UHGV virus genome: UHGV-0336137
Length of the DNA stretch: 46,423 bases
DNA from: a virus
Strand: one strand, 5' to 3'
Below the pieces are notes generated by a model. That model saw nothing but the letters and a program-made list of their open reading frames with translations, was not told the DNA's origin and did no database searches. How positions within the stretch are numbered: position 1 is the first letter of the stretch; each line of letters begins with the position of its first letter. Positions 1,061 to 44,858 of this stretch are shown piece after piece. The position numbers and the translations under genes were made by a program.

Positions 1061-4000
1061 TGGCAGAAACAGTTGGCGGCATTATCTATGAGGTTGGCAT
1101 TGACACATCTCAGTTAGCAGCTGGTAGTCGTGAATTGCAGTCAATGCTAAATGGCCTTAGCGGGAGCATGGGGCGACTTGAGGCCAGTGTAAACAGGACA
1201 GAGCGCTCTATTGGATCGATGGAACGAACAATGTCCAGCCTTTCTGGCGTTGCCAAGGGATTGTTCGCGGCGCTTTCTGTGCAACAGGTTGCGAGTTACG
1301 CCGATGCCTGGACTGAACTAAATAACAAGGTAGCTAACTCGGTTCGTACTGGAGAGACGCAGACCGAAGTTATGCAGCGGATCTTTGATGTTTCACAAGC
1401 AACCCAGTCATCCCTTAACGGCACGGCGACTCTTTACGCCAGGCTTGAGCGAGGAACCAGGGCGTACAACACCAGCGCGGAAGATTTAGTCCGCCTGACC
1501 ACTATTATCAATCAGGGGTTTGCAGTATCCGGTGCAACAGCTCAGGAAGCTGAGAACGCAATCATTCAGCTATCACAGGGTATCGCTTCCGGCGTTCTGC
1601 GCGGCGAGGAGTTTAACTCAGTGTCAGAGCAAGGCAGCCGCCTCATGGTAGCTCTGGCTGATTCGATGGGTGTTTCTATCGGTCAGTTGAGGGCTATGGC
1701 CGCTCAGGGGCAGCTAACAACAGACGTTGTAGTTAAGGGGCTTCTGTCACAAGGGGATGCCATCGGCAAAGAATTTGCCAACACCACCGTCTCAATCGCC
1801 AAGGGATTGCAGGTAGCCGGCAACAACGTAACGAAGTTCTTTGGCGAAAACTCGACGGTTAAATCATTTGCAGCAGGGTTCCGAGACTCTGTCATCACAA
1901 TAAGTGAGAACCTTGAGACGCTGAGCGGCGCCCTTATCATTGTAGCTGGCATAATGGGAAGTCGGTATGTTGGCGCGCTGGCAATGTCCACTGCCGCGAA
2001 AATATCAGATATAGCGGCATCAAGACAGCAATTAATAGCTGAGAATCAGCAGGCACAATCTGCACTCTTTGCCGCCAATGCCACCCAGAGAAAAGCTTTC
2101 GCTGATAAAGAGGCGGCACTATCATCTGTCGCACTTGCCCAGGCTGAATATAACGTAGCAAAAGGCAGTGCAGCCGAGGCGCTGGCTCTTGATGCTCTTA
2201 TAGCTGCAAAGTCCAGAGCGAGCGCCGCATCATTGTCTTTGGCGCAAGCTGAAAACGCACAGGCCGCGGCATCAGCGAGAGCGGCATCTGCGGCCAGAGC
2301 AGCTTCGGTAGGGGTTGGCCTTGCCAGAGGGGCGCTTTCATTGATAGGCGGCCCAGCAGGAGCGGCGACGTTAGCGGCGGGGGCAATTTTCTACTTCTGG
2401 CAAAAAGCGCAGCAGGCCAGAGAAGAATCCATTCGCTTTGCTGATAGCTTGGATCAAGTTAACGAGTCAATGAAGGCGATGAATAACACCCAGCTAAGGG
2501 GGGTAATTGCCGACGCTAATAAGTCTATTCAGGCACAAGAGGAATATGTAAGGGATCTTGAAGACAGCATTGATAAACTTAAAGGTGAGATTGATGACTA
2601 TACCGCAAGAGGAAAGCTGTTCGGAACAACAATAGAGCAAGGAAACGGGTTACTAAAAATCGCATCAGATAAAACTGATGAACTGAATCAAAAATCGCGC
2701 GACCTTGCGAACGCCAAGGAAAAACTAGCAAGAACTCAGGAAGCCGCATCTGAAGCACGCAGAACCCTTACAAACAACATGCTCACGTCTATGGGTGTGC
2801 ATGACAGCCTGATTGAGAAGGGATCAACGCTTGAAAGGGTGCAGGGCGCTGTAGCAAGAGCATTTGGCCTGACTGCCGATGAGATAAACCGAGCAAATCA
2901 GGCAGGCCAAAACTTCAACCCAAAATCCTTGCAAGTGTCGCCCCCAACAGAAGAAGCTGACAAGATAATCCTCAATCTTGAGGAGCAAAACCAACTTTTA
3001 AAAATACAGGATGAAAGACAAAGGGCAGTAACAAAGGCGAGAATGGAGGCAGCTAAGATAACTGATAACCCCAATCAGATAGCCAGAGCTGCTGAGCTTG
3101 CAGGTCAGATATATGATTTAACTGAGGCTGAGAAAGCAAGAGAAAAAGCGCAAAATGATTCTCAATCAGCGGCCCAAAAAGCCGCCACAGAGCAGGAGAA
3201 TATCGCCAACAAACTTGAGCAACTGCGGCAAGAATCATTGCTAACAGCAGATAGCACAAGAGAGCTAAGTCGAGAGCAAGCAATACTACAGGCACAACAA
3301 TCATTAGGAAAAGGCGCCACAGAGGAGCAAATAAGGCTCGCTGGAGAGTACAAGGCTAAGGCATGGGATAATGCCAACGCGATAAAGGCTCAGGCAGAGG
3401 CGGAGAAACAAAGGGTCGAAGCTGTAAAAGGATTCGCTGCATTAAAATCGCAGACATCACCAATGTTTGCCGTTGAAACAAACTATCAGAAGGATTTAGC
3501 AGCGCTTAATGCTTACGCAGTAGCTTACCCGCAAAAGATAGCGGAGGTTGAGCAGGCCAGAGCAGCAATTGAGGAGCAATACCGCCAGCAGCGCCTTGAT
3601 GCCATGTGGCAGGAGTGGAGTCAGCAGAATGCGGCTACGCAGGCGGCTGCTGCTGCATTTGATGCTTTTGGACAAACTGCAAGTAATGCCTTAACTGGCA
3701 TCCTGACTGGTTCAATGTCTGTTAGCGAGGCGCTACAGTCAATTGGCAGCACTGTGTTAAACGCCGTGATTAACTCATTCGTTCAGATGGGCGTGGAGTG
3801 GCTTAAATCAGTAATCATGGGACAGGCAGGAATGGCAGCGGCATCTGCCGCAACCGCCGCTCAGGCGGCAGGAATAGCAGCGGCTATGGCGCCAGCAGCA
3901 GCGATGACCTCGCTTGCTACATCTGGAGCTAACGCAATCCCAGCTCAGGCTGGTATTGCTTCTACGGTTGGTGTGGCTAAAGCAATGTCTGTTGCCGGGG

Positions 4001-8168: not shown

Positions 8169-10622
8169 ATGGCTACCACCCCAACTAACAAGCCAGTCCC
8201 GTCTAACGACCTGAATGATTTTAGATACAACTGTGAAAAAGTTGACGAGATTGTAAACTCAGGTAGTGAGACGTACACTGATAGATTCGGCGTGGAAAGA
8301 TATACCATTGATGGGGTAAGAAAAAATCTTATTCCTCTTGGTAAGCAATATATGACACTTTCTGATGCACAGGCTGATATTGCTAATATACCGGTCAACT
8401 CTTACACATACGTGCGCGATGCTTCGGGTACATCTCTGGCGCTGGAATATCAAAATGTAGCTGGTACTCTAACAGCAACTGGTCGTGCAATGCCGTCACA
8501 ACAATCAGTAGACAAAGCATCAAAAGCCGTTGATTCAGGTTTGAATGTTTTGTTTGATCCGCTATTTGAGGTATTGCTATCCAATCCTACCGTGGGAAGC
8601 AAAACACACATTGTTAGCGGAACGTTAACCGCGGCTTTGTCGACCAATGCTAAATTAGGCTTCCCGGCTATTGTGGCCGGACCCGATGCGGGCGCAATTG
8701 CCGCTCGCAGATTATGGCTCGCCGATTGTGCCGTGGATGTCGGGGATACCATATCTTTAAATGTTATCGCATGGTACGCCAATGCTGGTGGGCGCGTTGC
8801 TTTTGTTTTTCGTAATGCGTCTGGTACTGCTATAGGGACACAGTATTTATTATACGCCACCGGAACAGGGTTCAATCGGTATTTGCGCACTCTAACAGTC
8901 CCATCTGGTGCGGTTATGCTGGATGTGCGGGTCGAAAACACCGCTAATGCTGGTACGGTAGAGCTGGACGCAGTGTTTTTGATGTCTGCTACATCCGAAG
9001 CACATCCAACTGTGCCTGGTAGACCCGTGGCCCCCTATGCAGTGCCTCTGAAAAACAACGTTGTGACTACTTCTTCAATTCAAAAGGCCGCCGTCACAGT
9101 GGATAAAGCATCATTTTTCATTCCAGGAGTTAACCTTTTTGATAAAGCTGCCGTCACATCGGGGTATTATGTTAACTATAAGACCGGTAATTTAATCACT
9201 AACGCTTCGTATTCTGCATCTGATTATATCCCTGTAACAGCGGGTCAGAATTACACGCAAAGTTTTTCGCATCAAACAGCCTTCTACGATGCAAATAAAA
9301 CTTATATTTCTGGCGTTGATGCTCTTGTATCTCCATCAACAGCGAGGACTTTAACTATTCCTGCTGGGGCAGCTTATGTACGAATGTCAGTCGCAAATAC
9401 CGCACTCGATACGATGCAATTCGAAAAAGGTAATGAATCCACAAGTTACCAGCCATATGCATTACAGCTGGACCCGTCTTTAATACCAACTACAGCAGCC
9501 CCAGTCGTCGATTATGTAGAGAGAGCCTATCAGCTTCGCGTTACTCGGATGAAATTGGGGCAACTAGAAGCCGGTGTATCGGCCATTCTTAATGTTGGTA
9601 TTTTTGGCGATTCATGGGGAACATTAACCGAAAGATTCGCGAAACCTTTAGCAAAAGCGATTCGTGCTAAATATGGATCCGGCCCTGGTGTTGGCTGGGT
9701 ATCATTCGGCCGTCACAGCACATCCGCATCAATAATTAACGGCAACATTTTCTCAGTCAGCAGAGACCTGCCAACGCAATTCACATGGACAGGATCATGG
9801 TTGTTTAGTTATAGCGGCAAGAAAAACCCAACCAACTCCAGTCCAGATACTGCTGTTGTTACGTCCTCTACACCAGGGGATGCACTGAAGGCTACGGTCC
9901 CTGGCACCTCGGACGGCGGGTGGTCAACCTGCAGGCTGGGCTTTGTGGGTACAAGTGACGGTGTTATTCGATATAACTGGGATGGAGGGGCATGGACGAC
10001 GCTCAACGTGCAAGGTAGCGGACTGCTGTTTGTTGATATTAACCCACCGGCTACTGTAAATGCCTCTAATGTGATTAACGTTGAGGTTGTATCTGGCACG
10101 GTATCGTTATGTGGGATAAAGCCGATTGGCACTGGCTCTGGTGTGCGCGTTCATAAGCTAGGTGCGTCTGGCTCAAGTCTTGCATCATGGTTATCTATGG
10201 ACGCTACTGATTTTGGCAAGGCTTTAACAGAATTAGCTCTTGATACGGTGATTATTATTACCGGCACAAATGACCAGAGGATAACTGGTGGCGCTACTGC
10301 ATTTGAAGCTAACCTGCGCGCTTTTATTGCTCGTATCCGGGAGGCGTTGCCCGGCGCTGATATCCTGTTTGTCATGCCATGCGAGAATGAGCGGACTGAC
10401 AACCCGGTAACGATGGCATCAATGGCAGCCAGGGCCAGGACTGTAGCCTCAGATCTGAATTGCGCGTTTATAAACCTGCAATATATCTTCGGCGAAAACC
10501 CTGCAGATTATGCCTATGGTTCGATACACCCCTGGTTTGCTTCTGACGGTATCCACCCCGACCCGGCAACTGGAGGGTATTTAATAAAAGATGCAATATA
10601 TCGTGTAATGACAATGAGATAA
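8169..10622 (+). CDS. tail fibre / tailspike protein with C-terminal SGNH (GDSL) hydrolase domain
   Basis: ORF-track start 8160 is TTG, ATG at 8169 with GGAG upstream; C-terminal third carries SGNH blocks GIFGDSWG (I), ITGTNDQ (III) and DGIHPD (V). Confidence 0.7.
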   Translation: MATTPTNKPVPSNDLNDFRYNCEKVDEIVNSGSETYTDRFGVERYTIDGVRKNLIPLGKQYMTLSDAQADIANIPVNSYTYVRDASGTSLALEYQNVAGTLTATGRAMPSQQSVDKASKAVDSGLNVLFDPLFEVLLSNPTVGSKTHIVSGTLTAALSTNAKLGFPAIVAGPDAGAIAARRLWLADCAVDVGDTISLNVIAWYANAGGRVAFVFRNASGTAIGTQYLLYATGTGFNRYLRTLTVPSGAVMLDVRVENTANAGTVELDAVFLMSATSEAHPTVPGRPVAPYAVPLKNNVVTTSSIQKAAVTVDKASFFIPGVNLFDKAAVTSGYYVNYKTGNLITNASYSASDYIPVTAGQNYTQSFSHQTAFYDANKTYISGVDALVSPSTARTLTIPAGAAYVRMSVANTALDTMQFEKGNESTSYQPYALQLDPSLIPTTAAPVVDYVERAYQLRVTRMKLGQLEAGVSAILNVGIFGDSWGTLTERFAKPLAKAIRAKYGSGPGVGWVSFGRHSTSASIINGNIFSVSRDLPTQFTWTGSWLFSYSGKKNPTNSSPDTAVVTSSTPGDALKATVPGTSDGGWSTCRLGFVGTSDGVIRYNWDGGAWTTLNVQGSGLLFVDINPPATVNASNVINVEVVSGTVSLCGIKPIGTGSGVRVHKLGASGSSLASWLSMDATDFGKALTELALDTVIIITGTNDQRITGGATAFEANLRAFIARIREALPGADILFVMPCENERTDNPVTMASMAARARTVASDLNCAFINLQYIFGENPADYAYGSIHPWFASDGIHPDPATGGYLIKDAIYRVMTMR

Positions 10623-10624
10623 CA

Positions 10625-10648
10625 AAAAGGGCCATTCGGCCCTTTCTT
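10625..10648. terminator. bidirectional rho-independent terminator
   Basis: AAAAAGGGCC-ATTC-GGCCCTTTCTT hairpin flanked by A/T runs between convergent genes. Confidence 0.55.
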
Positions 10649-10650
10649 CA

Positions 10651-11154
10651 TCAAAACGGAATATCATCATCAAAATCCATCGGCGGCTCGTTTACCGGTG
10701 GTTTTTGTGTATTTGATGGTTGCTGCGGTTTACCCCACCCTGATTGCTGATTACTTCCTGACTGTTGCCGCTGCTGTGATTGTTGGTTTCCATTATCACT
10801 TGATTTACCACCAATCATTTGCATAACGCCGTTCATAGGCTGCAAGACGATTTCAGTAGTGTATTTTTCAACACCGCTTTGATCTGTCCATTTTCGAGTG
10901 CGTAATTTACCTTCTACATACACCTGAGAGCCTTTGCGCAGGTGTTCTCCAGCTACCTCTGCCAGCTTTCCGAAGATAACCACGCGATGCCATTCAGTTT
11001 GCTCTTTCTTTTCACCTGTGGCCTTGTCATTCCACTGTTCTGATGTTGCCAGAGACAGATTGCACACAGCGCCGCCAGATGGCATATATTTAACTTCCGG
11101 GTCTTGGCCGAGTGTGCCCAAAATGATTACTTTGTTGATTCCGCGAGATGCCAT
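10651..11154 (-). CDS. ssb: single-stranded DNA-binding protein
   Basis: 167 aa; OB-fold N-terminus [13 protein letters not shown]..., Gly/Gln-rich linker, acidic C-terminal tip DFDDDIPF typical of SSB. Confidence 0.9.
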
Positions 11155-11163
11155 AATTTACCC

Positions 11164-12201
11164 TTAAAAGTTTTCGATGTTCTGTTGAGATGTTGATGGC
11201 TTCTCTTCGTTTGCAGATGACGCAGGCGCATCTGCTTTCTGGAGTTTTGCCGGGTTGAAATCGTCCTGCGGTGTGATAGTTACCGCCGCTGGCGATTCAT
11301 CATTAATGAATGATTCAATGCGCTCATACTCTTCTGCTGATGCCTTCAATGTAGGCCAGATTGCACGAATTTTTGCTTTCACTGAATCAGGCAAGTTAAC
11401 TGCCTCGGCAGTTAGCGCAGCAATGCCTTTTGACGCCGTCATTTGAAGTTTAGAGCGCCAGTGCTCAAACTCTTCGTCGACCTTGACACCTGAATCTACC
11501 CATTTAATTAAACCACGACCATGAGCCTCGCCTAAGTATCCTTCGTGCACACTATCACGGCCTGAATCAAAGAAAATTGGACGCAACTCTTCTGGTAGCT
11601 TGGTAAATTCCTGAATTTTCCCATTATCATACATCATCATGCTTACTGTCATTTCAAACATAAAATCTTTTTCGCATACAGCATGCAATCCGAGGGATTC
11701 AGGTTTCTTGGGGTTTTTAAAGCTCGTTTTCTCTCTGGCGCGTAAACATACAATGATATGCATATTGCTCTGCAAAAGAGCGCTCATGAATTTTTTATGT
11801 TCAGACTTAGCTCGCTTCCAGTCTGCCATTGCCTTACCCTGCAATAGTGGTTGCTCTGCAATATCATTGCATCCGCCTTCACCTTCCCATTCGTGCGATC
11901 CTGAATCAATAACCAGAACCTTAACGCCTGCCTCCTGAAATTCCTCGATAGCCTGGCGGTAACGAGCTGGACTAAATGGCGCATACAAATCAGCGTGCAT
12001 AAATGGACCGTCAAGCTCTCCAGAATAAAGCCTGCCACGACCATTTTCAGAGTCAAGAAATCCAATTTCTTCTGGTTTATCGACCATACCTCGCGCCATC
12101 TTTAGTGCCGTAAGCGTCTTACCGCTACCAGACTGACCTGAAATGCCAATCACTACGCGTGAACCAGAGCGCTCTGCTGGCTTAATGTTTAAAATACCCA
12201 T
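11164..12201 (-). CDS. RecA-fold ATPase (AAA_24 / Sak4-like recombination-associated protein)
   Basis: Walker A GISGQSGSGKT near the N-terminus; ORF-track start is GTG, ATG at 12201 has an AGGTGA RBS; sits between SSB and exonuclease as in phage recombination modules. Confidence 0.55.
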   Translation of the reverse strand: MGILNIKPAERSGSRVVIGISGQSGSGKTLTALKMARGMVDKPEEIGFLDSENGRGRLYSGELDGPFMHADLYAPFSPARYRQAIEEFQEAGVKVLVIDSGSHEWEGEGGCNDIAEQPLLQGKAMADWKRAKSEHKKFMSALLQSNMHIIVCLRAREKTSFKNPKKPESLGLHAVCEKDFMFEMTVSMMMYDNGKIQEFTKLPEELRPIFFDSGRDSVHEGYLGEAHGRGLIKWVDSGVKVDEEFEHWRSKLQMTASKGIAALTAEAVNLPDSVKAKIRAIWPTLKASAEEYERIESFINDESPAAVTITPQDDFNPAKLQKADAPASSANEEKPSTSQQNIENF

Positions 12202-12224
12202 CACTTCACCTCATTTACTATAAA

Positions 12225-16546: not shown

Positions 16547-16736
16547 ATCGTATCATCAATTTTCTTATATCCACACTTCCATAAAGGTGACGATGCCAGT
16601 AACTATCAATAACATGATAGCTTGATATTAACCAGCAGCCGTGAAATTTACTCCAGAAAAACCAAACACTCCAACCATAAGGCCTAAAATGATATGCGCC
16701 TTCTGACCTTACTAAGTAACCTTTTATCTTCATCAT
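16545..16736 (-). CDS. hypothetical 63-aa protein (W/H/Y-rich)
   Basis: ATGA-coupled to the upstream gene's stop, GAGG RBS; unusual composition, no homology recognised. Confidence 0.25.
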   Translation of the reverse strand: MMKIKGYLVRSEGAYHFRPYGWSVWFFWSKFHGCWLISSYHVIDSYWHRHLYGSVDIRKLMIR

Positions 16737-18286
16737 TTAAGCCTCGGATTCAGGTAAACAGTATTATTGAGGAATACGCAATATCCATCCTCTTCAAGAG
16801 ACGGCAAAACGTTTGACTTGAGCCTGTCATATATATGCGGTATACCTTTGAATGGTCTGACGTTTTTTAGTGAATCATACAGCCATTTCACGGTGACGTT
16901 TGTCTTTCCTTTTTGCGCAGCTGTGCGCAATTTTTCAGCAACGACATCAATTTCTGATTTCTCGCCAGCGTATCCATTTGACTCAACGGCATCGGTAAAT
17001 GTTTTTGTTAGTGCATCATAAACGCTTATGGCGCGGCTTATATGCTCCTCACCAATAATTTTTGAGCGACGCCCGCCATCGCACCAGTTTTCAGCGGCAT
17101 GGAATATTGCTGAAAGCCTGATTATCTGTTTGTCAGCCTTACCCATGGCGCCACGAAGCAAAACATGATCCCATTTTCCACCAGGAAGAAAATTCTTTTC
17201 CCACTGGTTTCGTAAAAGTCCAATCATACGCTGCGATTCTTTAGCGAGGGAGAAAACAACCTTCTCAGAAGCCACAAGGTTATGCACAAACCTGGCATAT
17301 TCTGCCTTTAGTTCTTTAGGCATTGGCTTACTTACCGGGCAATCATTTTCCACATCCCAATGCTCACGATAACCCAACATCGACTGTTCACGAAGCATCA
17401 GGAATCGCTCTGACAATCCATTACCCCTGTCGCCAGCAGACAGAATGGCATCAATACTTTCATCCTGCGCAATGACGCTGATGTTACCGAGTACGTAGCC
17501 AGATGAAACACCACGACCAACGCGAGCTGAGCCAACAAACCCGCCATCCCAACCCTTCAGGATGACCTCGGCGTTAGACTTGCCTCCATCCTTGCCATAC
17601 GAAAGGCCAAGACAGGTATTTAAAACGCTTGCCTCATCACTTATCAGGTTGAAAAAACCACCCTCATGAATTGCCTGGTGCTGCACAGCTTCTGGCGTTG
17701 CATCGGTTAACGGGTAGGTGATGGTGTAAAGACTTTCCAGCTTTTCCTTCTCTTTCGCAATGTCATCTCCAATGATGGCCTTCGCGTTCTGATTCGTCGC
17801 TTCCTTGTAAGCCTTCATCAGGTCTTCAATGCGAATGTTTATCTTTACAATTTCCTTCTCCATCTTTTTTGACAGGTTGTCATACTCAATTTTTATCGGG
17901 TTCATGTGCATTGAGTTGATGGCTGTCTTGCCAGCTGATGGCGGCTGCGACGTCACCACATACAAGGAAACAGGCAATTCAGAACCGTAGTATTCAACGC
18001 TAAAATTTCGCGTCATGGCACTTGCTACGCAGCCAAGCAGGTGCATGAATGATGTGCTAACAGGGAATTGCACAGCCCTCGCCGCCGCAACTGAGTAGCG
18101 CGTTATCAGGTCTTTCCTGTTGTCGCTGGTAAGCTCTATCTCCGAGTATGTTACATCCTTCTCCTGTCCTTCCTTGATTTCCGGCCACATGTTATGGCTT
18201 GGTGTCATGCCATGATGAATGGCTACGCGCGCCGCAGAGGTGTGCGCCTCTCTTGCCTGATTGAAGATTTCCTGTGCTGTAATCAT
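16733..18286 (-). CDS. DUF3987-like protein (primase/helicase-associated C-terminal domain family)
   Basis: 517 aa; ..VVTSQPPSAGKTAINSM.. P-loop-like motif as seen in DUF3987 proteins of phage/plasmid primase-helicase systems; sits in the replication operon. Confidence 0.4.
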   Translation of the reverse strand: MITAQEIFNQAREAHTSAARVAIHHGMTPSHNMWPEIKEGQEKDVTYSEIELTSDNRKDLITRYSVAAARAVQFPVSTSFMHLLGCVASAMTRNFSVEYYGSELPVSLYVVTSQPPSAGKTAINSMHMNPIKIEYDNLSKKMEKEIVKINIRIEDLMKAYKEATNQNAKAIIGDDIAKEKEKLESLYTITYPLTDATPEAVQHQAIHEGGFFNLISDEASVLNTCLGLSYGKDGGKSNAEVILKGWDGGFVGSARVGRGVSSGYVLGNISVIAQDESIDAILSAGDRGNGLSERFLMLREQSMLGYREHWDVENDCPVSKPMPKELKAEYARFVHNLVASEKVVFSLAKESQRMIGLLRNQWEKNFLPGGKWDHVLLRGAMGKADKQIIRLSAIFHAAENWCDGGRRSKIIGEEHISRAISVYDALTKTFTDAVESNGYAGEKSEIDVVAEKLRTAAQKGKTNVTVKWLYDSLKNVRPFKGIPHIYDRLKSNVLPSLEEDGYCVFLNNTVYLNPRLK

Positions 18287-18544
18287 TTAAACCTCATACT
18301 CGGTTGCAAATGATTCGTGTGGGTTCTCTGATAGCCACTGCTTAGCTTTAAGTACGGCTGCGTTTGCCTCCTCTGCCGTTTCAAACCTGCCAAGCTCATA
18401 CCTTAGTCGGTTAACAACAATCCTAGCCCTGAAATATCCAGAGTGCTTATGGAAGTCAACCCCTCTAAACCCGGTAGATGATGGCCTTCCGCCACCGGAT
18501 GATGAAAGTCTTTTTTTCTTAAGTAGCTTTCCATGTGCAGACAT
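18287..18544 (-). CDS. AP2-domain DNA-binding protein (stand-alone; no nuclease motif)
   Basis: 85 aa; ..FRGVDFHKHSGYFRARIVVNRLRYELGRFETAEEA.. AP2-type strand-strand-strand-helix signature normally attached to HNH homing endonucleases. Confidence 0.5.
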   Translation of the reverse strand: MSAHGKLLKKKRLSSSGGGRPSSTGFRGVDFHKHSGYFRARIVVNRLRYELGRFETAEEANAAVLKAKQWLSENPHESFATEYEV

Positions 18545-21510: not shown

Positions 21511-21613
21511 CTGATTTATAATAATTAATGCGGCAAAGGGTAGCTCCCTGCCCGGATTGGTCTCCGGGCTGCTGCATCCAATCAATAGACCGCCTGTAAC
21601 CGAGGATTCAAGA

Positions 21614-22126
21614 ATGCCATCATTAAAAGAGCTCGCTCTCACTCAGGAAAGACTTAAGCATCTACTGCATTACAATCCAGATACTGGTGTTTTCACATGG
21701 GTTCAGCGCGCCTCAAAAAGCGTAAGAGTTGGTAATTCAGCGGGCAGTAAGAATAAGTCAGGCTATATAGATATACGCATCGATAAGTCTTTACACAAAG
21801 CTCATCGGCTTGCGTGGCTTTACATTTATGGTGTGTGGCCCAATGGGAAAATAGATCACATCAATAACGTGAAGACAGATAACAGAATCTGCAACCTGAG
21901 AGAAGCAAGTAATAATGAAAACGGATGGAATGTTGGTAAACCATCGACAAATACGTCAGGAGTAAAAGGTGTGAGTTGGGATGCAGAGAAAAATAAATGG
22001 AAGGCGCATTGCAGGGTTTTTGGGAAAAAATATACGGTAGGTAGGTCTTCGTCAAAAGAAGATGCTGAGAGAGCTGTGGCGGAGTTCAGAAATAAACATC
22101 ACGGGGAGTTTTGTAATCATGGCTAG
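21614..22126 (+). CDS. HNH homing endonuclease with C-terminal AP2 domain
   Basis: start moved to ATG with GAGGA RBS (ORF-track start is TTG); ..HKAHRLAWLYIYGVWPNGKIDHINNVKTDNRICNLREASNNEN.. HNH_3 motif; ..GVKGVSWDAEKNKWKAHCRVFGKKYTVG.. AP2 motif; inserted between terminase subunits. Confidence 0.7.
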   Translation: MPSLKELALTQERLKHLLHYNPDTGVFTWVQRASKSVRVGNSAGSKNKSGYIDIRIDKSLHKAHRLAWLYIYGVWPNGKIDHINNVKTDNRICNLREASNNENGWNVGKPSTNTSGVKGVSWDAEKNKWKAHCRVFGKKYTVGRSSSKEDAERAVAEFRNKHHGEFCNHG

Positions 22127-23543
22127 AAAAAGACTCTCAAGTGTGGCAATCGAAAAACTTGAACAGGTAGTTGGCAACTCAACTGCAAAGCCAGAATCAG
22201 CAGTTTTTGGGCTTGTAGATAACTTACTCCAGGATGGCGCTCCAAATGTCGTAAAGCGCCTTAAGATGACAGCCACCGGAGTATCTGAAACTGATGAAGA
22301 GCCAACAATATTAATTCCTGAGCGGATGGAGCTACTACTTTATCCTCGCCGCTTTAAAGTGTTCTATGGTGGCAGGGGGTCAGCAAAATCGAGGTCGTGT
22401 ATATCCTACCTTATCGAAAAAGCAAGATTCCGCAACAGTCGCGTTGGTTGTTTCCGTGAGATACAGAACTCGATCAAAGAGTCAAGCTATGCCGAGCTGG
22501 TCGATGAGATAAGCAGGAAGGGGCACACTCAGGAATACCGTTGCGTTGATGGTGAGATAACCCACCATTCAACGAGGTCAAAGTTTGTTTTTCGTGGTCT
22601 TTGGCGAAACATAACCGCCATCAAAGGTATGGCTGGCCTTACTGATGTGTTCTGTGAAGAATCCGAAAATATCAGTCAGGTGTCATGGGATACATTAATC
22701 CCGACAGTCCGCGCTGCTGGTTCTGAAATTATTATTGTTTTTAACCCGAACAAAGAGACGGACCCGACATGGACTAACTTTGTTGAGCCTTACATCGACA
22801 AGATGGTAGATGGCATATATCAGGATGATGACATCGTTGTTGTCAATGTTAACTACGTCCACAACCCGTGGTTCACTGAAGAACTGAAGCAGCACATGAA
22901 CCAGATGAAGGCGGTAGATTATGACCGCTATCTATGGGTTTATGAGGGGTTGTTTAACAGGCGATCAGATGAGGCCGTACTTGGTGGTAAGTGGCAGACT
23001 CTTGATTTCGAGCCATCGCCAGATTGGGGCGGGCCTTACTATGGTATTGATTTTGGTTTCTCGCAGGATGCTACGGCAGCAACTGAATCTTATGTCGAGG
23101 ATTTGGGCGGCGGAAGAAGAAACCTGTATATCTACCGCGACTTTGCAAAGGTTGGTCTTGAGATAACTGATACGCCAGAGGCTATGCGACTGGCATTCCC
23201 CGGCTCCGAAAAATACAGATGGTATGGTGACTGCGCAAGGCCAGAAACAATAAGCCATATAAAGCGCTCAGGTTTTGATATCCACCCGTGCGCAAAGTGG
23301 CCTGGAAGCATTGAGGACGGAATTACATGGCTCAGGGGTTGTGACAGGATTTTTGTTCACGAAAGATGTAAGACTGTCATTGAGGAGTTTACTCTTTACA
23401 GCTACAAAGTGGACAAGCTCACGGGAAATATACTTCCTGATATCATCGACAAGCACAACCACGCCACAGATAGTTTGCGCTATGGCCTTGGCGATCACAT
23501 CGTACAGCGCGGCTCTGGATGGATTAGAAGGAGCAGGAGATAA
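22119..23543 (+). CDS. terminase large subunit
   Basis: start MARKRLSS overlaps the HNH stop by 8 nt; Walker A YGGRGSAKS; C-terminal acidic nuclease-domain residues; about 475 aa. Confidence 0.8.
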   Translation: MARKRLSSVAIEKLEQVVGNSTAKPESAVFGLVDNLLQDGAPNVVKRLKMTATGVSETDEEPTILIPERMELLLYPRRFKVFYGGRGSAKSRSCISYLIEKARFRNSRVGCFREIQNSIKESSYAELVDEISRKGHTQEYRCVDGEITHHSTRSKFVFRGLWRNITAIKGMAGLTDVFCEESENISQVSWDTLIPTVRAAGSEIIIVFNPNKETDPTWTNFVEPYIDKMVDGIYQDDDIVVVNVNYVHNPWFTEELKQHMNQMKAVDYDRYLWVYEGLFNRRSDEAVLGGKWQTLDFEPSPDWGGPYYGIDFGFSQDATAATESYVEDLGGGRRNLYIYRDFAKVGLEITDTPEAMRLAFPGSEKYRWYGDCARPETISHIKRSGFDIHPCAKWPGSIEDGITWLRGCDRIFVHERCKTVIEEFTLYSYKVDKLTGNILPDIIDKHNHATDSLRYGLGDHIVQRGSGWIRRSRR

Positions 23544-24471: not shown

Positions 24472-24629
24472 TTATTGAAGAAACACATGAATGCAACGCA
24501 ATAACAGTTAAGGCGGATAGAAACGCAGATTTAAGGCAGTTTGGGGACTGGATTCAACTTGACAAACACCAGGCCGCGCAGCTTATCGAAGTCCTGCAAC
24601 GCTTGGTTTATGGCGAGGAGATTGAGTGA
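24468..24629 (+). CDS. hypothetical small protein (53 aa)
   Basis: ATGA start/stop overlap with the upstream gene; below ORF-track cutoff. Confidence 0.3.
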   Translation: MIIEETHECNAITVKADRNADLRQFGDWIQLDKHQAAQLIEVLQRLVYGEEIE

Positions 24630-24700
24630 TGAGAGTTTGCATGCGTCATTTTGCATGCCAAATTAATATTTGTAAATTGACTCCAGCCATTTATCAAATT

Positions 24701-25072
24701 TTATGCCTCAACCCAGTCGCCATCTTCGTTTTTAACGACCTCGACAAGGGTGTCGAACTGGCGTTTGCATTCTGCCGGGTCATCGCCCCAGGTTGGCATT
24801 TCAGCCAGCCAGTTTTTATCCGTGTCGACTGAACCGGTAAAGGGGTTCATCAGGAATTTTTCAGTAGTCATTTTGAGAGCCTCGTTAATTTCGCTTATGC
24901 GGGAATGAAGCACACGCTGCACATCCGCACCTATGGTTGATGGCAGTGCATACTTTCCTGTGACCCAGTGCCGGACCGTTCGGTCGCTGACGGAAAGTCT
25001 TTCCGCCATCTCGGTGACGAAGTGATTCCCGAACGCAGCCTTTCCAGCGGCGATAAAAGCTTCGATGTTCAT
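24701..25072 (-). CDS. helix-turn-helix DNA-binding protein
   Basis: HTH ..VTEMAERLSVSDRTVRHWVTGKYALPS..; start taken at the internal ATG (MNIEAF) with AAAGG RBS. Confidence 0.5.
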   Translation of the reverse strand: MNIEAFIAAGKAAFGNHFVTEMAERLSVSDRTVRHWVTGKYALPSTIGADVQRVLHSRISEINEALKMTTEKFLMNPFTGSVDTDKNWLAEMPTWGDDPAECKRQFDTLVEVVKNEDGDWVEA

Positions 25073-25073
25073 A

Positions 25074-25280
25074 TTACGCCTTTGCGAGATTCCAGGTTGA
25101 TTTAAGGGCGGCAGCAAAGAATTCACAAGCTTTACGACCCGCATTTTGGGGAAGAGATGCGAAGCCTTTTGCTTCTGCCCATGCTGCGCGCATGATTGCT
25201 GCTTTGTCGAATTTGCCGTTGACGATCAGCGTTGCTTTAGTGGCTGCCTGGTTTTTTTTGAAAGAGTTGAGAATGCGCAT
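25074..25280 (-). CDS. hypothetical protein (68 aa)
   Basis: ORF immediately upstream of, and same strand as, the HTH gene. Confidence 0.3.
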   Translation of the reverse strand: MRILNSFKKNQAATKATLIVNGKFDKAAIMRAAWAEAKGFASLPQNAGRKACEFFAAALKSTWNLAKA

Positions 25281-25548
25281 TTGGAATCACCTTTGTGATA
25301 TTGGCTGGGGCTTATCCCCTTGCCTATGTAAGTAATATACACATTCCGATAATCGGAAGCAAGGTTTTTATGAGATTTATATCGAAAGGTGGCAAAGATA
25401 TTCGGTCTTGCGTGTCACGAATTGGGGGAGTGCAGCACGGCGGGATACCAAGTGGTGTCATGTGTGACCTTGCTTCTCATCGCTAACAAGGCCATACATG
25501 AAGAGGTTCCTTTTTCGCATCAATATCACGCAGGCATGACCATGCTAT

Positions 25549-25577
25549 AATCCCATCACTACCGATGGGATTTTTTT
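25549..25577 (+). terminator. strong hairpin plus T-run (terminator/attenuator) overlapping an extended -10-like TGCTATAAT (25543-25551)
   Basis: AATCCCATC-ACTACC-GATGGGATT then TTTTTTT, 12 nt before the portal start. Confidence 0.45.
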
Positions 25578-25588
25578 ATGGTGACGAA

Positions 25589-26983
25589 ATGTCAAAGTTA
25601 GAGGCGGTGAACGCCTATATTCAGCAGCGAGTGGCGAACAATAACAGACTCATCGAGCGGCAGCGCCGGGAGTTTAGCGGGAAGAACCTTGACCAAAAGC
25701 ACGACAGGCTTTGGTCGGAGTGTGGTTACAGCCAGGAGATTACAGCAGCAGATTTCCGCTTTGCCTACGAGCGATATCCGTTAGCTACAGCGGCGGTTAA
25801 CCTTGTGCTCAATAAGTCGTGGCAAGGTATGCCCACCGTTCTTGAGCACAATGCTGATGACGAGGCAACATCCAAATGGGAAGTTTCGGTAAACAAAATC
25901 CTCAAGAAGTCAGCTCCATTTATCAAAGATGCTGATAAGCGCAACCTGATCAACCGCTACTCAGGCTTGCTGCTTCAGATAAATGATGGCGGCCAATGGA
26001 GTGATCCTGTTAATGTGACCAAAACAGGCAGAATTAAAGATGCGGCAATCGTTAGGCTAATCCCATGCTGGGAGGAGCAGTTGCGCGTTTCTCAGTGGCA
26101 AAATGACGAGTCAAAGGAGGACTACGGACAGCCTTTGATGTTCGAGTACCAGGAAAGCGCCGTTGATGATTTTGATAACGATGGTAAGCCAAAGCGATCG
26201 GTTAAAATCCACCCTGACCGCATTATTACTCTCGCAGAGGGTGGTTTCGATGGGAGCATATTCTCTGGCATTCCTCTGCTTCGAGCTGGATTTAACGCTT
26301 TAATAGACTGCGCCAAAATTACCGGAAGTTCAGCGGAAGGGCTTCTCAAAAACTCATCACGTCAATTATCTATATCCTTCAACAAAGATAATGTATCTGT
26401 GCAATCCCTTGCGCAGCAAATGGCCGTTACGGTAGAGGAGCTGCCAGATATCCTTAATGAAGATATAGAAAGAATAAATAGCGGGATTGACGCTGCGATG
26501 TTTGGGTTTGGCAATGATGTGGATGTGCTGTCAGTAACCATGAACGACCCTGAACCGTTCATGTACGTAGCGGCCAGCCAATTTGCTTCATCCGTAAATA
26601 TTCCTCTTAACTCATTGCTCGGTAGTCGCAGCGGCGTACTTGCGTCCGCAAATGATGAGCAGTCACTTGCCATGATGGCAATGCAGCGTCGTGACGGGTG
26701 GCTCGATTATCTTATTTCTGTGTTCGTCGAGCGTTTAATTAAATTCGGCATCATCGACAAAGCGCCAGAGGCCGGATATTACTGCAAGTGGAATGACTTG
26801 CTGGAGCCTACGCAGAACGACAAGGCAGAATTGATTGTCAAGCTGGCGCAAGCTGCGCAGAGCGCTGCGAATGCAGGTTTGGACCCAATCCTGACGGCAG
26901 ATGAAATTCGCTCATTCCTTGGCCTTGATCCAATAAAATTACCAGGCGGCATGAGTGAGGATGACCCATCACAAGAGGAGTGA
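25589..26983 (+). CDS. portal protein (putative)
   Basis: about 465 aa directly upstream of a MuF-like gene; start moved to MSKLEAV (GGTGA RBS); size/position and acidic C-terminus fit portal; no motif-level proof. Confidence 0.55.
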
Positions 26984-27077
26984 TGATATAATAAATGTGC
27001 AGCTAGGGGGCGCCCGAAAAGATGAACGTAGACATCCTGCTGCATCCTCAGTCTACGAACCTACTACGAGGTTAATC

Positions 27078-27983
27078 ATGGCAAAAAGACTCACCACGGA
27101 AGACTTCATTTCTCGCGCCAGGCAAAAACATGGCGATAAATACATTTATGATAAGTCTGTGTTTTCTGGAACGAAAAAACAAGTAACGATAACCTGCAAA
27201 AAACATGGCGATTTTACTCAAAAAGCGGAATGCCATCTTGCTGGTTACGGCTGCGAACTTTGCGCCAGAGATGTTCGGGCAAGAAAGTTAATGACATCAA
27301 ATGATGAATTTATCTCTAAAGCTAAAATGGTTCATGGTGATAAATACTCATATGACAAGTGCATATACTCAGGAAATCACAGGAAGGTGTTGGTAACATG
27401 TCAAAAGCATGGTGACTTTTCACAACAACCGGCAAACCATCTATCAGGAAATGGCTGTCCATCATGCAAACTTGAGCTCCTGTCTGAAAAGTTCAGCGAT
27501 AATAAAGCCTCATTCATAACAAAAGCAAGAGCAATTCACGGAAGAAGATACTCATACGAGAAAGTTAATTACATGAAAAGTTCAATAAAAGTGTGTATTA
27601 CGTGTCATATCCATGGCGATTTCTATCAGACACCTAACTCGCACTTGTGGGGGGCCGGTTGCAATAAATGCACAGCTTATGGGTTTAAACCTGCAAGTGT
27701 ATATGTGGCTGAAATGGATGGGGCGTGCAAGATAGGTGTAAGCAACAACACTGAAAGAAGAATGAAAAGCATATCAAAATCAGCAGGGAAAACTGTCGCT
27801 GTGGTTGCTGAGTACTCATTCCCATCATGGGCTGACGCGAGAAAGGCTGAATCAATGATACACAAAGAAATAAAACATAAAAATGCAGGGTTAACCGGAT
27901 TTGATGGGTCGAGAGAATTTTTCAATATATCAACCCATGAGGCGGCAGAATTGGTTTTAAAGCATGGAGGAAGAGTGAAATGA
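27078..27983 (+). CDS. T5orf172 (GIY-YIG-related) domain protein with four tandem zinc-binding modules; homing-endonuclease-like
   Basis: four repeats of about 60 aa (..KHGDKY.YDK..Y.G....V...C.KHGDF.Q....HL.G.GC..C); C-terminal ..VYVAEMDGACKIGVSNNTERRMKSISK.. T5orf172-type motif; inserted between portal and MuF-like genes. Confidence 0.55.
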   Translation: MAKRLTTEDFISRARQKHGDKYIYDKSVFSGTKKQVTITCKKHGDFTQKAECHLAGYGCELCARDVRARKLMTSNDEFISKAKMVHGDKYSYDKCIYSGNHRKVLVTCQKHGDFSQQPANHLSGNGCPSCKLELLSEKFSDNKASFITKARAIHGRRYSYEKVNYMKSSIKVCITCHIHGDFYQTPNSHLWGAGCNKCTAYGFKPASVYVAEMDGACKIGVSNNTERRMKSISKSAGKTVAVVAEYSFPSWADARKAESMIHKEIKHKNAGLTGFDGSREFFNISTHEAAELVLKHGGRVK

Positions 27984-28927
27984 AAATCCTCAGACTTAAC
28001 GCCCGCCTGCCACAGCCAAGGGTGTCGCAAAGCCTGACTGACCCGTTAGGATCAGCGCCACGGCTTAATAAGATGGATAAGGATATCGCCTCCAGATACA
28101 AACGCATTCGCGCGGCTCTTCTTGAGCTGTTCCGCAGCATTCCAGTAAGCGAAAGGAATGCTGAATCAAGTGGTAATTATTATTATGATTTCAGCGCCTC
28201 GCGTGCTGCGTCGTTCATGGATGAACTGCAACGCCTGCTTGACCAGTTTTTGCTTGAGGGCGATACATTCGACCATGGGCAGATGTGGGCCAATATTCAT
28301 ATTGGCGACGCATGGGCCGCCGGAACTCAAAAAGCAAACTCAGAACTGTCAAGCCTGTCAAGTCTCTACGCTGAACAGCGACCTATGGCAGCCATCCTGT
28401 ATAGCGAGCCATACCTTAACCGTCTGCAACTGGCGTACACTCAGGGGTACTCAGACTGGTCTGGGCTGAGTGACTACACCAGGCAGCAGGTTGCATCGGT
28501 TGTAATGGAGGGCATTGCCCGCGGTGCCAACCCTCGTGACATTGAAGACGATATCGTCAAGCGCGCCGACGTATCTCATAGTTACGCACGTTCTATCGCG
28601 CAGACCGAGATAACTGGCGTACTGCGTGAGTCAAATCGCAAGGAAGTGATTGAGGCACGCGAGACGCTTGGCATTGAAACCATTATGCTCTGGCAGTCGG
28701 CGCTGATGAAGACAACTCGCGTTACTCATGCCGCGCGTCATGGGAAATATTACACCCCGGAAGAGATTGATGAGTTCTACAGCGAAGGCGCAAACCGCAG
28801 GAATTGTCACTGCGCTCAGATACCTGCATTAGTGATGGATGGCAAGCCGGTGATACTTGAGAGGACGCAGGAAAAGCTCGATAAGCAGCGTGAAGCATGG
28901 CAGGATACACACAAGAAAGCCACCTGA
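27980..28927 (+). CDS. MuF-like minor head (head morphogenesis) protein
   Basis: 315 aa following the portal; ATGA overlap with upstream gene; typical SPP1 gp7/Mu F position. Confidence 0.55.
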   Translation: MKILRLNARLPQPRVSQSLTDPLGSAPRLNKMDKDIASRYKRIRAALLELFRSIPVSERNAESSGNYYYDFSASRAASFMDELQRLLDQFLLEGDTFDHGQMWANIHIGDAWAAGTQKANSELSSLSSLYAEQRPMAAILYSEPYLNRLQLAYTQGYSDWSGLSDYTRQQVASVVMEGIARGANPRDIEDDIVKRADVSHSYARSIAQTEITGVLRESNRKEVIEARETLGIETIMLWQSALMKTTRVTHAARHGKYYTPEEIDEFYSEGANRRNCHCAQIPALVMDGKPVILERTQEKLDKQREAWQDTHKKAT

Positions 28928-29010
28928 TGGCGGCTTTTTATTCTCATGGCGATTAATGAATCAGAAATATAACGCCAAGCAGCATTCCGAAAAGCACCCA
29001 TACATCCATC

Positions 29011-29859
29011 TTATACCTCCAGCTTCACGCCAGGAATTTTACCTGCTGCGATGGCGTCGTACACGTCAAACCAGCAAGAGCCATAACCTGCCTTCTCATC
29101 AACTTTTCCATTACCTCCGCCTGCATCGCATAACGCCTGTACAGCATCATCGCGCTTCCGCTCTGCTTCTGAGAGGATGGGGCGGAAAATCCAGTTATTA
29201 TTTTGAAATTCTTCCGTGAAGTTGCCAATTTCAATTAGCCACGCGCCATTCTTCTCATTTATCGCTCTGTATGTACACCATGAGCGTCCGCCATCCACTG
29301 ACACTTCACACTCATAACCAACCGGCGGCAAGCCTTCGCCATTCCAAACCGGCGCGACACTATGCCCGACGCACTCATTCAGGTCGGCTTCGTCATCCGC
29401 TTTGGCCTGCTCTGCTTCCTGCGGCTGGTGCAGGCGGTAGGCGATGATGTTGGAATATGCCCATTCGTGCTCCCATGAATACTCACCAGCGGGGTATCCT
29501 GATTGCACATTTCCATTCTTAAATTTGACATCCACAGCTGTGTTTGTGCTAACTGGCGGGTGTTTGCCACCACCCCACTCAATCCAGCCGTCATCCTTCG
29601 CAGCCAGCGCGGCTTCGTACTGTTCGCGGGTGATGATGGCGGTTTCGTAGTCACTCGCCAAAACATCAGCAATGAAACAGTCAATTCTAGAACCATTAAG
29701 AAACCACCGATTAAAACTAACCTCAAATTTAGCAACGCATGGCTGGCATGTTGCCGGCATGATTTCTCTGTCGCGGTCCTGCGTGATGCAATTGGCACGC
29801 TCCGGCCATGACCATCCGTTTTCAATGGTTTCCTCAACCAAAATATCAATCAGCTTCAT
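29011..29859 (-). CDS. hypothetical protein (282 aa), moron
   Basis: opposite orientation inside the structural region; Trp/Cys-rich; no homology recognised. Confidence 0.4.
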   Translation of the reverse strand: MKLIDILVEETIENGWSWPERANCITQDRDREIMPATCQPCVAKFEVSFNRWFLNGSRIDCFIADVLASDYETAIITREQYEAALAAKDDGWIEWGGGKHPPVSTNTAVDVKFKNGNVQSGYPAGEYSWEHEWAYSNIIAYRLHQPQEAEQAKADDEADLNECVGHSVAPVWNGEGLPPVGYECEVSVDGGRSWCTYRAINEKNGAWLIEIGNFTEEFQNNNWIFRPILSEAERKRDDAVQALCDAGGGNGKVDEKAGYGSCWFDVYDAIAAGKIPGVKLEV

Positions 29860-44196: not shown

Positions 44197-44274
44197 TGGT
44201 TCCCGCGACAGGATTCGAACCTGTACTCATCCGATTATGAGTAGGGTGCTTTAACCAGTTAAGCTAAACGGGAA
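44197..44274 (-). tRNA. tRNA-like sequence, possibly degenerate tRNA-Met/Ile2 (CAT anticodon)
   Basis: canonical T-arm ACAGGTTCGAATCCTGT, D-arm GCTT/AAGC, 3' CCA and loop CTCATAA, but the anticodon stem pairs poorly and the acceptor has a 7:66 mismatch. Confidence 0.4.
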
Positions 44275-44276
44275 TT

Positions 44277-44353
44277 TGGCGCACCATACTGGATTCGAAC
44301 CAGTTACCGATTGCTTAGAAGGCAATTGCTCTATCCTGATGAGCTAATGGTGC
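44277..44353 (-). tRNA. tRNA-Arg (anticodon TCT)
   Basis: 77 nt; acceptor GCACCAT/ATGGTGC, D-stem GCTC/GAGC, anticodon arm ATTGC-CTTCTAA-GCAAT, T-arm ACTGGTTCGAATCCAGT, encoded CCA. Confidence 0.85.
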
Positions 44354-44359
44354 TGAATG

Positions 44360-44447
44360 TGGCGGATAGTACAGGATTCGAACCTGTGAACCGTTTCCGG
44401 TTTATCGGTTAGCAACCGACTGCTTTCGGCCTCTCAGCCAACTATCC
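44360..44447 (-). tRNA. tRNA-Ser (anticodon GCT), type II
   Basis: 88 nt; acceptor GGATAGT/ACTATCC, anticodon arm GTCGG-TTGCTAA-CCGAT, long variable arm AAACCGGAAACGGTTC, T-arm ACAGGTTCGAATCCTGT, CCA. Confidence 0.8.
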
Positions 44448-44858
44448 GTGGTGTTGTGGTGTCCGGTGCTGGCATCCGGCATAAGGCGCTTATTCGGCGG
44501 CGTCGAGCTTGCTTATTCGCTTGAGCCATCCTCGTGAGTCAGCCACGTCCCACTGCGCATCAGCCTGCGCATTGACCACAACGGAAAGAGCACTCCAGGA
44601 CTTACCACACGTACTTTTGCGCATAGGTCGTCACCAGTGCGGGCGTGTCCCCTGAAGCTACCTGACAATGCTCTTACCTGTTGTGTGCCCATTATTAATC
44701 ACACCGGGCCAGTGCGCCGAATTCATTGACAAGGAGTCGGAAGACCTTGCTGGTGTTTAGCCGTTAGGCTACTGCCAGATACATTTCTTCGTTTGCATTT
44801 ATCTTTGTGGTCAGTTTCTAAAAACCCGCAAAGTCGCACCGAAAACTATCTGCCATTA
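44448..44858 (-). other. about 410-nt non-coding leader between the leftward promoter element and the tRNA cassette (candidate structured RNA, cos/pac or origin)
   Basis: no ORF of 60 aa or more on either strand; GC-rich with direct repeat CTGCGCAT x2. Confidence 0.3.

Follow-up and report, generated by a model that had tools for sequence, protein, structure and literature searches.

We analyzed a 46,423-nucleotide (nt) viral genome (UHGV-0336137; referred to here as the window) and focused on an open reading frame (ORF) located between its portal gene and its MuF-like head-morphogenesis gene. On the basis of ORF prediction and Pfam and PHROG searches, this ORF (positions 27078 to 27983, plus strand; 301 amino acids [aa] plus stop) is very likely a free-standing homing endonuclease gene (HEG) of the T5orf172 branch of the GIY-YIG superfamily. 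Its product has three N-terminal zinc-module repeats and a C-terminal nuclease domain. The gene occupies the portal/MuF junction in some related phages and is missing from that of many others, and it is much younger at this site than the two genes that flank it.

A T5orf172 gene between the portal and MuF-like genes

The initial annotation of this genome, which was made from the sequence alone, had placed a nuclease-like gene between the portal and MuF-like genes, and the ORF and its flanks bear this out. To the left lies the portal gene (25565 to 26983, plus strand; Phage_portal_3, E = 9.8e-19; PHROG 146, E = 1.5e-82), and to the right lies the MuF-like head-morphogenesis gene (27980 to 28927, plus strand; Phage_Mu_F, E = 2e-10; PHROG 758, E = 2e-113). 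The HEG is a separate ORF, served by its own ribosome-binding site (RBS), in the interval from the portal stop (26983) to the MuF start (27980). Its probable start is the ATG at 27078, which is preceded by GAGG (27068 to 27071) six nt upstream and is equivalent to the RefSeq start in phages VSt472 and Skate. The longest version of the ORF would begin at a possible GTG start at 26955; the resulting 41-aa upstream extension was shared only by P0001 and P0002, which are window-type proteins from the database, and was absent in more distant homologues. At the other end, the TGA of the HEG and the ATG of the MuF-like gene overlap (ATGA at 27980 to 27983). Regarding its relatives, a database search with the protein returned >2,200 homologues at E ≤ 1e-5, and tblastn matches were obtained in 910 phage records. 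The whole protein matched PHROG 681 ("endonuclease"; E = 9e-62), a search of NCBIfam assigned it to no family, and no paralogues were found elsewhere in the window.

The T5orf172 nuclease domain spans positions 27690 to 27962 (plus strand; aa 205 to 295), as delimited by Pfam, invariant alignment columns, and an AlphaFold2 (AF2) model. The Pfam model T5orf172 (PF10544) matched aa 208 to 293 (E = 1.4e-11; 45.2 bits against a cutoff of 20) over profile positions 3 to 97 of 101, and MUG113 matched the same C-terminal region (E = 2.5e-10). Inside the Pfam match, at aa 208 to 234, is the string VYVAEMDGACKIGVSNNTERRMKSISK, which had previously been quoted as a T5orf172-type motif. Ten residues (Y209, K218, G220, R228, E258, H262, G274, F275, G277, and E280) were invariant in an alignment of 23 sequences, and all of the 23 aligned relatives matched T5orf172. 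The protein carries the conserved motifs K218-I-G220 and G274-F-x-G277 and the core expected for T5orf172 (i.e., the Tyr of strand 1, the [K/Y]-I-G of strand 2, the Arg of helix 1, and the catalytic Glu). When the sequence was compared with Odn (ICP1 gp88), E258 aligned with Odn E180, the residue whose replacement (E180A) leaves Odn with no cleavage in vitro and no function in vivo (PMC8263062).

Modeled alone, the C-terminal domain (predicted local distance difference test [pLDDT], 90.6; predicted template modeling score [pTM], 0.80) has the predicted order β-β-α-β-α-α, which would be typical for GIY-YIG domains. The predicted viral structures in BFVD yielded 258 matches at E ≤ 1e-3; their annotations include T5 Orf172 domain, GIY-YIG nuclease, CapR-homology, and Hef-like homing endonuclease, and giant-virus proteins are also represented. 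No different fold was assigned to the protein by the profile searches. We also considered a packaging-associated HNH protein of the HK97 gp74 type as an identity for this gene and rejected it; there was no HNH match, and the gene is sporadic at the locus.

Three zinc-module repeats

Self-alignment of the protein delimited three repeats with a period of 68 aa. Repeat 1 (27090 to 27275, plus strand) covers aa 5 to 66 with the candidate ligands C40, H43, C59, and C62; repeat 2 (27294 to 27479, plus strand) covers aa 73 to 134 with C108, H111, C127, and C130; and repeat 3 (27498 to 27683, plus strand) covers aa 141 to 202 with C176, H179, C195, and C198. The repeats were 39 to 47% identical to each other at the aa level, and their global alignment scores were 12 to 20 standard deviations above those of shuffled controls. 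The repeat unit can be written as F-I-x-K-A-x3-H-G-x-K/R-Y-x-Y-x5-Y-x5-K-V-x-I/V-x-C-x2-H-G-x-F-x-Q-x4-H-L-x-G-x-G-C-x2-C. The candidate metal ligands (C-x2-H...C-x2-C) were present in all three modules. In two alignments (23 and 62 homologues), these positions showed either no variation or ≥90% conservation, with those of repeat 2 being invariant across the 23-sequence alignment.

These results revise the initial annotation in two details, which had described four repeats with a CxH-type ligand pattern; we found three, all with the C-x2-H...C-x2-C spacing. As candidates for a fourth repeat, the C-terminal 99 aa and the possible N-terminal extension from the GTG did not align to the repeat unit (local scores, 16 to 20). 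A tandem repeat at the DNA level was likewise rejected, as Tandem Repeats Finder found nothing and the in-register nt identity was 47 to 56%. The number of modules (counted by regular expression) ranged from 2 to 6 per protein in the 120 best database homologues, which places the three modules of the window protein at the low end.

In the AF2 model, repeat 1 is composed of a helix, a β-hairpin, and a second helix (pLDDT, >90). The full-length AlphaFold model had a pLDDT of 91.7 and a pTM of 0.47; such a low pTM is expected for a "beads-on-a-string" or flexible multidomain protein, and a Foldseek search of this model against the PDB returned only noise, as expected with this pTM. At the family level, DUF4379 matched (E ≤ 1e-3) 23 of the 23 aligned relatives, DUF723 matched 12, and CapR matched 4, while the Pfam CapR model had no match in the window protein itself. 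Given the published work on related proteins (PMC10448857), the repeats are putative zinc-finger DNA-recognition modules. They might even form an additive DNA-recognition code, in which each module reads a fixed block of base pairs in the manner of zinc-finger or TALE arrays, but we regard this as a long shot.

With such modules, the protein could in principle be mainly a sequence-specific DNA-binding regulator (like CapR or the autorepression by I-TevI) that acts near the portal/MuF junction and tunes late genes with little or no cleavage. Related zinc-finger modules have been co-opted in the CapR repressor, I-TevI doubles as a repressor, and the stop/start overlap with the MuF-like gene suggests integration into late-operon expression. 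We nevertheless consider a regulatory role very improbable. The catalytic-type residues of T5orf172, including the equivalent of Odn E180, are invariant, and the gene is dispensable and sporadic, as described below; a regulator would also leave unexplained the discordance between the synonymous divergence of the gene and that of its flanks.

Occupied and empty portal/MuF junctions

We surveyed the junction by tblastn with the portal C terminus and the MuF N terminus as queries and determined the coordinates of both genes across many phage records. The portal and MuF-like genes abut or overlap (i.e., the junction is empty) in K1M, Segz_1, BUCT541, ZX4, DS8, swi2, and Akira. The junction is also empty in VLCpiS13a/b/f, KpV2811, EI_sp1, and Lewi and in more distant Mannheimia, Erwinia, and Klebsiella phages. 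The same HEG (86 to 98% aa identity) is present at the junction in YX3973, VSt472, BS5, Seszw_1, NX263, and PHA46_2, and the occupied Salmonella phages include several Salmonella skateviruses. Different T5orf172 alleles occur at this junction in ZCKP8/ZC2 (two zinc modules) and in Skate/VLCpiS13c (43% aa identity). The presence/absence survey that the initial annotation had called for thus revealed a gene that is present in several relatives, missing from many, and not universal at this locus. The outcome named there as a refutation (a different fold in profile searches and universal conservation at the locus) was therefore not what we observed.

The structure of the alleles indicates what was inserted. 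Where the junction is empty, the MuF-like gene starts within the final ~20 nt of the portal gene (annotated overlaps, ~20 nt), whereas in occupied alleles the portal stop is followed by a 94-nt leader and then the ORF. At their 3' end, the portal genes of HEG-bearing Salmonella phages still carry the former overlap region in diverged form, and the 5' end of the MuF-like gene is nearly identical in occupied and empty alleles. Judging from this sequence comparison, the conserved MuF 5' end stands out as a candidate component of the recognition site. The leader (26984 to 27077, plus strand), which is part of the inserted cassette, contains TGATATAAT (26984 to 26992) and the RBS. It is absent in K1M, Segz_1, BUCT541, and ZX4 and is 85 to 99% conserved in all occupied alleles, including those with different HEG alleles. 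A consensus scan detected no promoter or terminator in or around the cassette, and TGATATAAT is reported as a sequence observation only; the predicted RNA fold of the leader was no better than those of shuffled sequences (z = -0.14). Because the cassette is inserted behind the portal stop and the HEG ends in the ATGA overlap with the MuF-like gene, both essential genes stay intact. Translation of the MuF-like gene is probably coupled to the HEG instead of the portal gene.

Additional observations concern the alleles and their surroundings. The three divergent junction alleles (window, 26984 to 27221; ZCKP8, 2942 to 3138; Skate, 2404 to 2644) have the leader in common (85 to 99% nt identity), and the first ~100 to 145 nt of their ORFs are 80 to 85% alike and divergent beyond. 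These shared starts point either to recombination within module 1 that exchanged alleles or to a conserved function of the leader or N terminus. Module 1 of the Skate allele no longer has the second Cys of its C-x2-C pair (…GCKRR…). In the Salmonella phages EI_sp1 (OP924280) and LPST10 (NC_054645), in which the portal/MuF junction itself is empty, a ~41%-identical T5orf172 homologue lies apparently just beyond the MuF-like gene (judged from coordinates only); this would be a second insertion site for the family in the same module. Salmonella phage Seszw_1 has an extra annotated HNH endonuclease gene just upstream of the portal gene (Seszw_1, 1189 to 1665), so that its portal gene is bracketed by two nuclease genes, as in an "HEG island."

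Decay and dispensability

The YX3973 copy carries a TGC-to-TGA change at the codon for Cys59, i.e., the first Cys of the C-x2-C of repeat 1 (YX3973, 3212 to 3214; window, 27252 to 27254), and RefSeq annotates this copy as two ORFs (gp31 and gp32). The nonsense codon reflects either a decaying copy or a sequencing error. Engineered genome-reduced seszw mutants, which were obtained through iterative CRISPR-based deletion (PMC9825161), no longer contain the 88%-identical HEG orthologue and were recovered and sequenced as plaque isolates; in MZ375353 ("seszw_300L"), the orthologue is deleted and the MuF-like gene lies 92 nt after the portal gene. Dispensability is shown by these mutants for the 88%-identical seszw orthologue rather than for the window copy.

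These observations bear on the alternative that the gene is a domesticated nuclease serving the phage, either by excluding or degrading coinfecting phages or satellites (like Odn) or by assisting packaging beside the portal like the HNH proteins of HK97-type terminases; such a benefit, and not homing, would then maintain it. The location of the gene in the packaging/head module is compatible with such a role, for which non-homing T5orf172 proteins (Odn and CapR) and packaging HNH proteins provide precedents. However, the gene is absent from many close relatives with the same portal/MuF architecture, the YX3973 copy has a nonsense mutation, and the seszw mutants without the orthologue still formed plaques. 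Moreover, Odn has a RepA_N domain and no zinc-finger repeats, and exclusion of competitors ("marker exclusion") is a by-product of homing and therefore no true alternative to it. Overall, we judge domestication to be unlikely.

Age discordance and mosaic tract

We compared the synonymous divergence (dS) of the HEG with that of its flanks. Against YX3973, dS was 0.306 for the portal gene, 0.293 for the MuF-like gene, and 0.033 for the HEG, i.e., about 10-fold lower. Against VSt472, the portal and MuF-like genes were saturated and dS of the HEG was 0.43. The HEG is thus much younger at this site than its flanks, and the contrast with YX3973 (0.033 versus ~0.30) implies a very recent transfer. 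In sliding windows, nt identity to the Salmonella phages was 83 to 94% in the cassette and 55 to 80% in the flanks. The ratio of nonsynonymous to synonymous divergence (dN/dS) of the HEG was 0.09 to 0.17, indicating that the protein is under purifying selection. Such selection on the protein counts in favor of the domesticated-nuclease alternative.

The HEG lies at the center of a ~3-kb mosaic tract (25700 to 28700), which was delimited by sliding-window identities to BUCT541 and YX3973. Across most of the window genome, identity to Klebsiella phage BUCT541 is 96 to 99.7% (99.7% for the HNH and TerL genes). Identity within the tract is 51 to 70%, versus 97 to 100% in the adjoining sequence on both sides. 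The left breakpoint (~25,700) falls some 135 nt inside the portal gene, and the right one (~28,700) leaves the last ~230 nt of the MuF-like gene outside the tract; past these points, identity recovers to 99 to 100%. YX3973 is ~94% identical to the window across this tract, and its DNA next to the tract (24,500 to 25,500 and 28,900 to 29,800) is unrelated to the window. This pattern fits what would be expected if an HEG-bearing portal/MuF segment had been copied into a BUCT541-like backbone, with putative coconversion extending ~1.3 kb leftward and ~0.7 kb rightward. Together with the dS discordance, the mosaic tract is a prediction of homing and argues against a domesticated nuclease.

The age of the gene is also relevant to a further alternative, in which the window copy would be an inactive relic of a past invasion that neither cuts nor moves and is kept only because its deletion would disturb MuF translation. 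HEGs cycle through invasion, decay, and loss, the YX3973 copy is already broken, and the HEG stop is overlapped by the MuF start. In contrast, the ORF of the window copy is intact, with all of the zinc ligands and core nuclease residues present, its dN/dS is about 0.1, and the dS contrast with YX3973 implies a very recent transfer. We therefore give this explanation very little credence.

Proposed mechanism and its weighing

The initial annotation had described a free-standing, presumably mobile gene interrupting portal-MuF synteny, and this description is upheld by the domains, by the presence/absence and allele polymorphism at the junction, by the youth of the gene relative to its flanks, and by the mosaic tract. 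By analogy with free-standing GIY-YIG HEGs and published T5orf172 proteins, we propose that the three N-terminal ~68-aa C-x2-H/C-x2-C modules would jointly contact an extended DNA site, like "beads on a string." The predicted target is at or near the empty portal/MuF junction of related phages without the HEG, and the C-terminal T5orf172 domain would cut near the bound site. During coinfection, the break would be repaired from the HEG-bearing genome by recombination, and this repair would copy the cassette (the 94-nt leader plus the ORF) with variable lengths of the portal and MuF flanks. The insertion would split or alter the junction sequence, which would protect the carrier. Inferred parts of this scheme are that the protein binds zinc, that its repeats contact DNA, that it cuts, which sequence it targets, and which way the transfer ran.

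Several points weigh against interpreting the gene as a HEG. The family matches of the modules in the window protein are below the cutoffs: the match to DUF723 in the repeat 1 region (aa 3 to 48) had an E value of 9e-4 and 19.6 bits (just below the cutoff of 20.9), and that to DUF4379 ("probable treble clef zinc finger"; aa 96 to 131) had an E value of 2.7e-4 and 21.5 bits (cutoff, 24.5). Sequence and profile searches found no relatives in the PDB, and the best Foldseek match of the nuclease domain there was weak (1zg2; E = 0.13; probability, 0.51; TM score, 0.37 to 0.39); this entry is a UPF0213 protein of the GIY-YIG type. About eight other segments are noncollinear between the window and BUCT541, and since mosaicism is common in these genomes, the tract alone is no proof of HEG-driven conversion. 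The direction of the exchange cannot be fixed from the genomes compared. Finally, according to Barth, Dunham, and Seed (2023), homing by T5orf172 HEGs is without experimental verification (PMC10448857).

Comparison with known systems

The closest description is the survey by the same authors, in which 200 of 229 T5orf172 HEGs had at least one CapR, DUF723, or DUF4379 zinc-finger domain (DUF4379 is printed as DUF4397 in places), often in tandem (PMC10448857). These domains were read as recombining "beads on a string" recognition modules, and the HEGs were shown to be concentrated near essential genes (terminase, capsid, and others) and to coincide with genetic exchange boundaries (PMC10448857). 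Zinc binding and sequence-specific DNA binding were reported for CapR only (PMC10448857). The window gene fits this description in every tested respect, and this kind of element has thus already been described. It shares with the surveyed HEGs of ICP1 and diverse phages the N-terminal tandem zinc-finger modules, the C-terminal T5orf172 domain, the placement beside essential structural and packaging genes, and the association with exchange boundaries. It differs in its phage group and position (i.e., a Klebsiella/Salmonella Skatevirus-like siphovirus group and the portal/MuF junction) and in its modules, which are of the DUF723/DUF4379 type (C-x2-H...C-x2-C) rather than of the CapR type (CxxC...CxC). 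The window locus also adds natural empty, occupied, allele-swapped, and decayed states as well as engineered deletions.

Odn is the only biochemically characterized T5orf172 nuclease that we found. Like the window protein, it has a C-terminal T5orf172 domain, and the Y...K-[IV]-G...R...E-x3-H cores of the two proteins align, with E180 corresponding to E258. Unlike the window protein, to which it is 20% identical over the domain, Odn has a RepA_N DNA-binding domain taken from the PLE satellite, targets the satellite origin (PMC8263062), and is an antiparasite weapon rather than a homing element. CapR, the capsid repressor of the PLE satellite, belongs to a related family of zinc-finger DNA-binding modules, and many of the BFVD matches are "CapR homology domain" proteins; it is, however, a repressor and a domesticated endonuclease (PMC8096241 and PMC10448857), whereas the window protein keeps the conserved catalytic-type residues.

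The Seg proteins of T4 and I-TevI resemble the window gene as free-standing intergenic GIY-YIG genes beside conserved genes that encode a modular nuclease with a DNA-binding region, and they home with coconversion of flanking markers. I-TevI differs in its reversed domain order, with the nuclease at the N terminus, and in binding DNA through a helix-turn-helix and minor-groove elements; its single zinc finger serves as a linker or ruler, and there is no recognition array. Regarding Hef of phage U5, which the literature cites among the free-standing endonucleases of T4-like phages and which has nrdB as its target, the likeness is a BFVD structural match (E = 2.4e-15) to a protein that is Hef-like by database annotation only.

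Other nuclease-type genes and variable sites

The initial annotation had counted three HEG-type elements in this genome, of which the other two were an HNH-AP2 gene and an orphan AP2 gene. We checked this count in part. The HNH_3 plus AP2 ORF exists (21557 to 22126, plus strand; 189 aa; HNH_3, E = 1.6e-13; AP2, E = 5e-4), but it may be a packaging-associated HNH gene rather than a mobile HEG. It is the immediate upstream neighbor of TerL (22062 to 23543), whose start it overlaps, and is 99.7% identical in BUCT541 and 98.7% identical in YX3973. The AP2-only ORF (18287 to 18544, minus strand; 84 aa) is below the Pfam cutoff (E = 4.8e-5; 24 bits against 33.3) and may be an orphan DNA-binding remnant, as had been proposed. 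A DUF3987 primase/helicase-type gene (16733 to 18286) follows immediately downstream of it in the minus-strand direction.

Another site that differs among the near-identical genomes is the recombinase/SSB interval. BUCT541 gp17 is an annotated HNH endonuclease between the recombinase and SSB genes (BUCT541, 9711 to 11003), and the window has a segment that does not align to BUCT541 (11103 to 12199), in which an AAA_24 recombinase-type ORF (11164 to 12204) adjoins the SSB gene. This interval is another variable nuclease site. The window also contains a tRNA cluster (44197 to 44447, minus strand; Met-CAT, Arg-TCT, and Ser-GCT), which is common to BUCT541 and falls in a gap of the YX3973 alignment (window, 44219 to 44550).

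Significance of the locus

On its own, the gene is an ordinary selfish element, and its value is as a model locus. A single junction in one small phage group presents five states: empty, occupied by one of three T5orf172 alleles, freshly invaded, decayed, and experimentally deleted. If the additive code were true, the three-module window, two-module ZCKP8, and three-module Skate alleles at this junction would be a natural Rosetta stone; differences in target between alleles could then be mapped to single modules, and the modules could be reassorted into programmable nucleases. The locus would also be a convenient place to demonstrate T5orf172 homing directly for the first time and to map the sequences that the zinc modules recognize. 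Furthermore, it could be used to measure the extent to which such elements carry neighboring portal and head alleles with them between Klebsiella and Salmonella phages, a question relevant to the stability of therapeutic phage cocktails.

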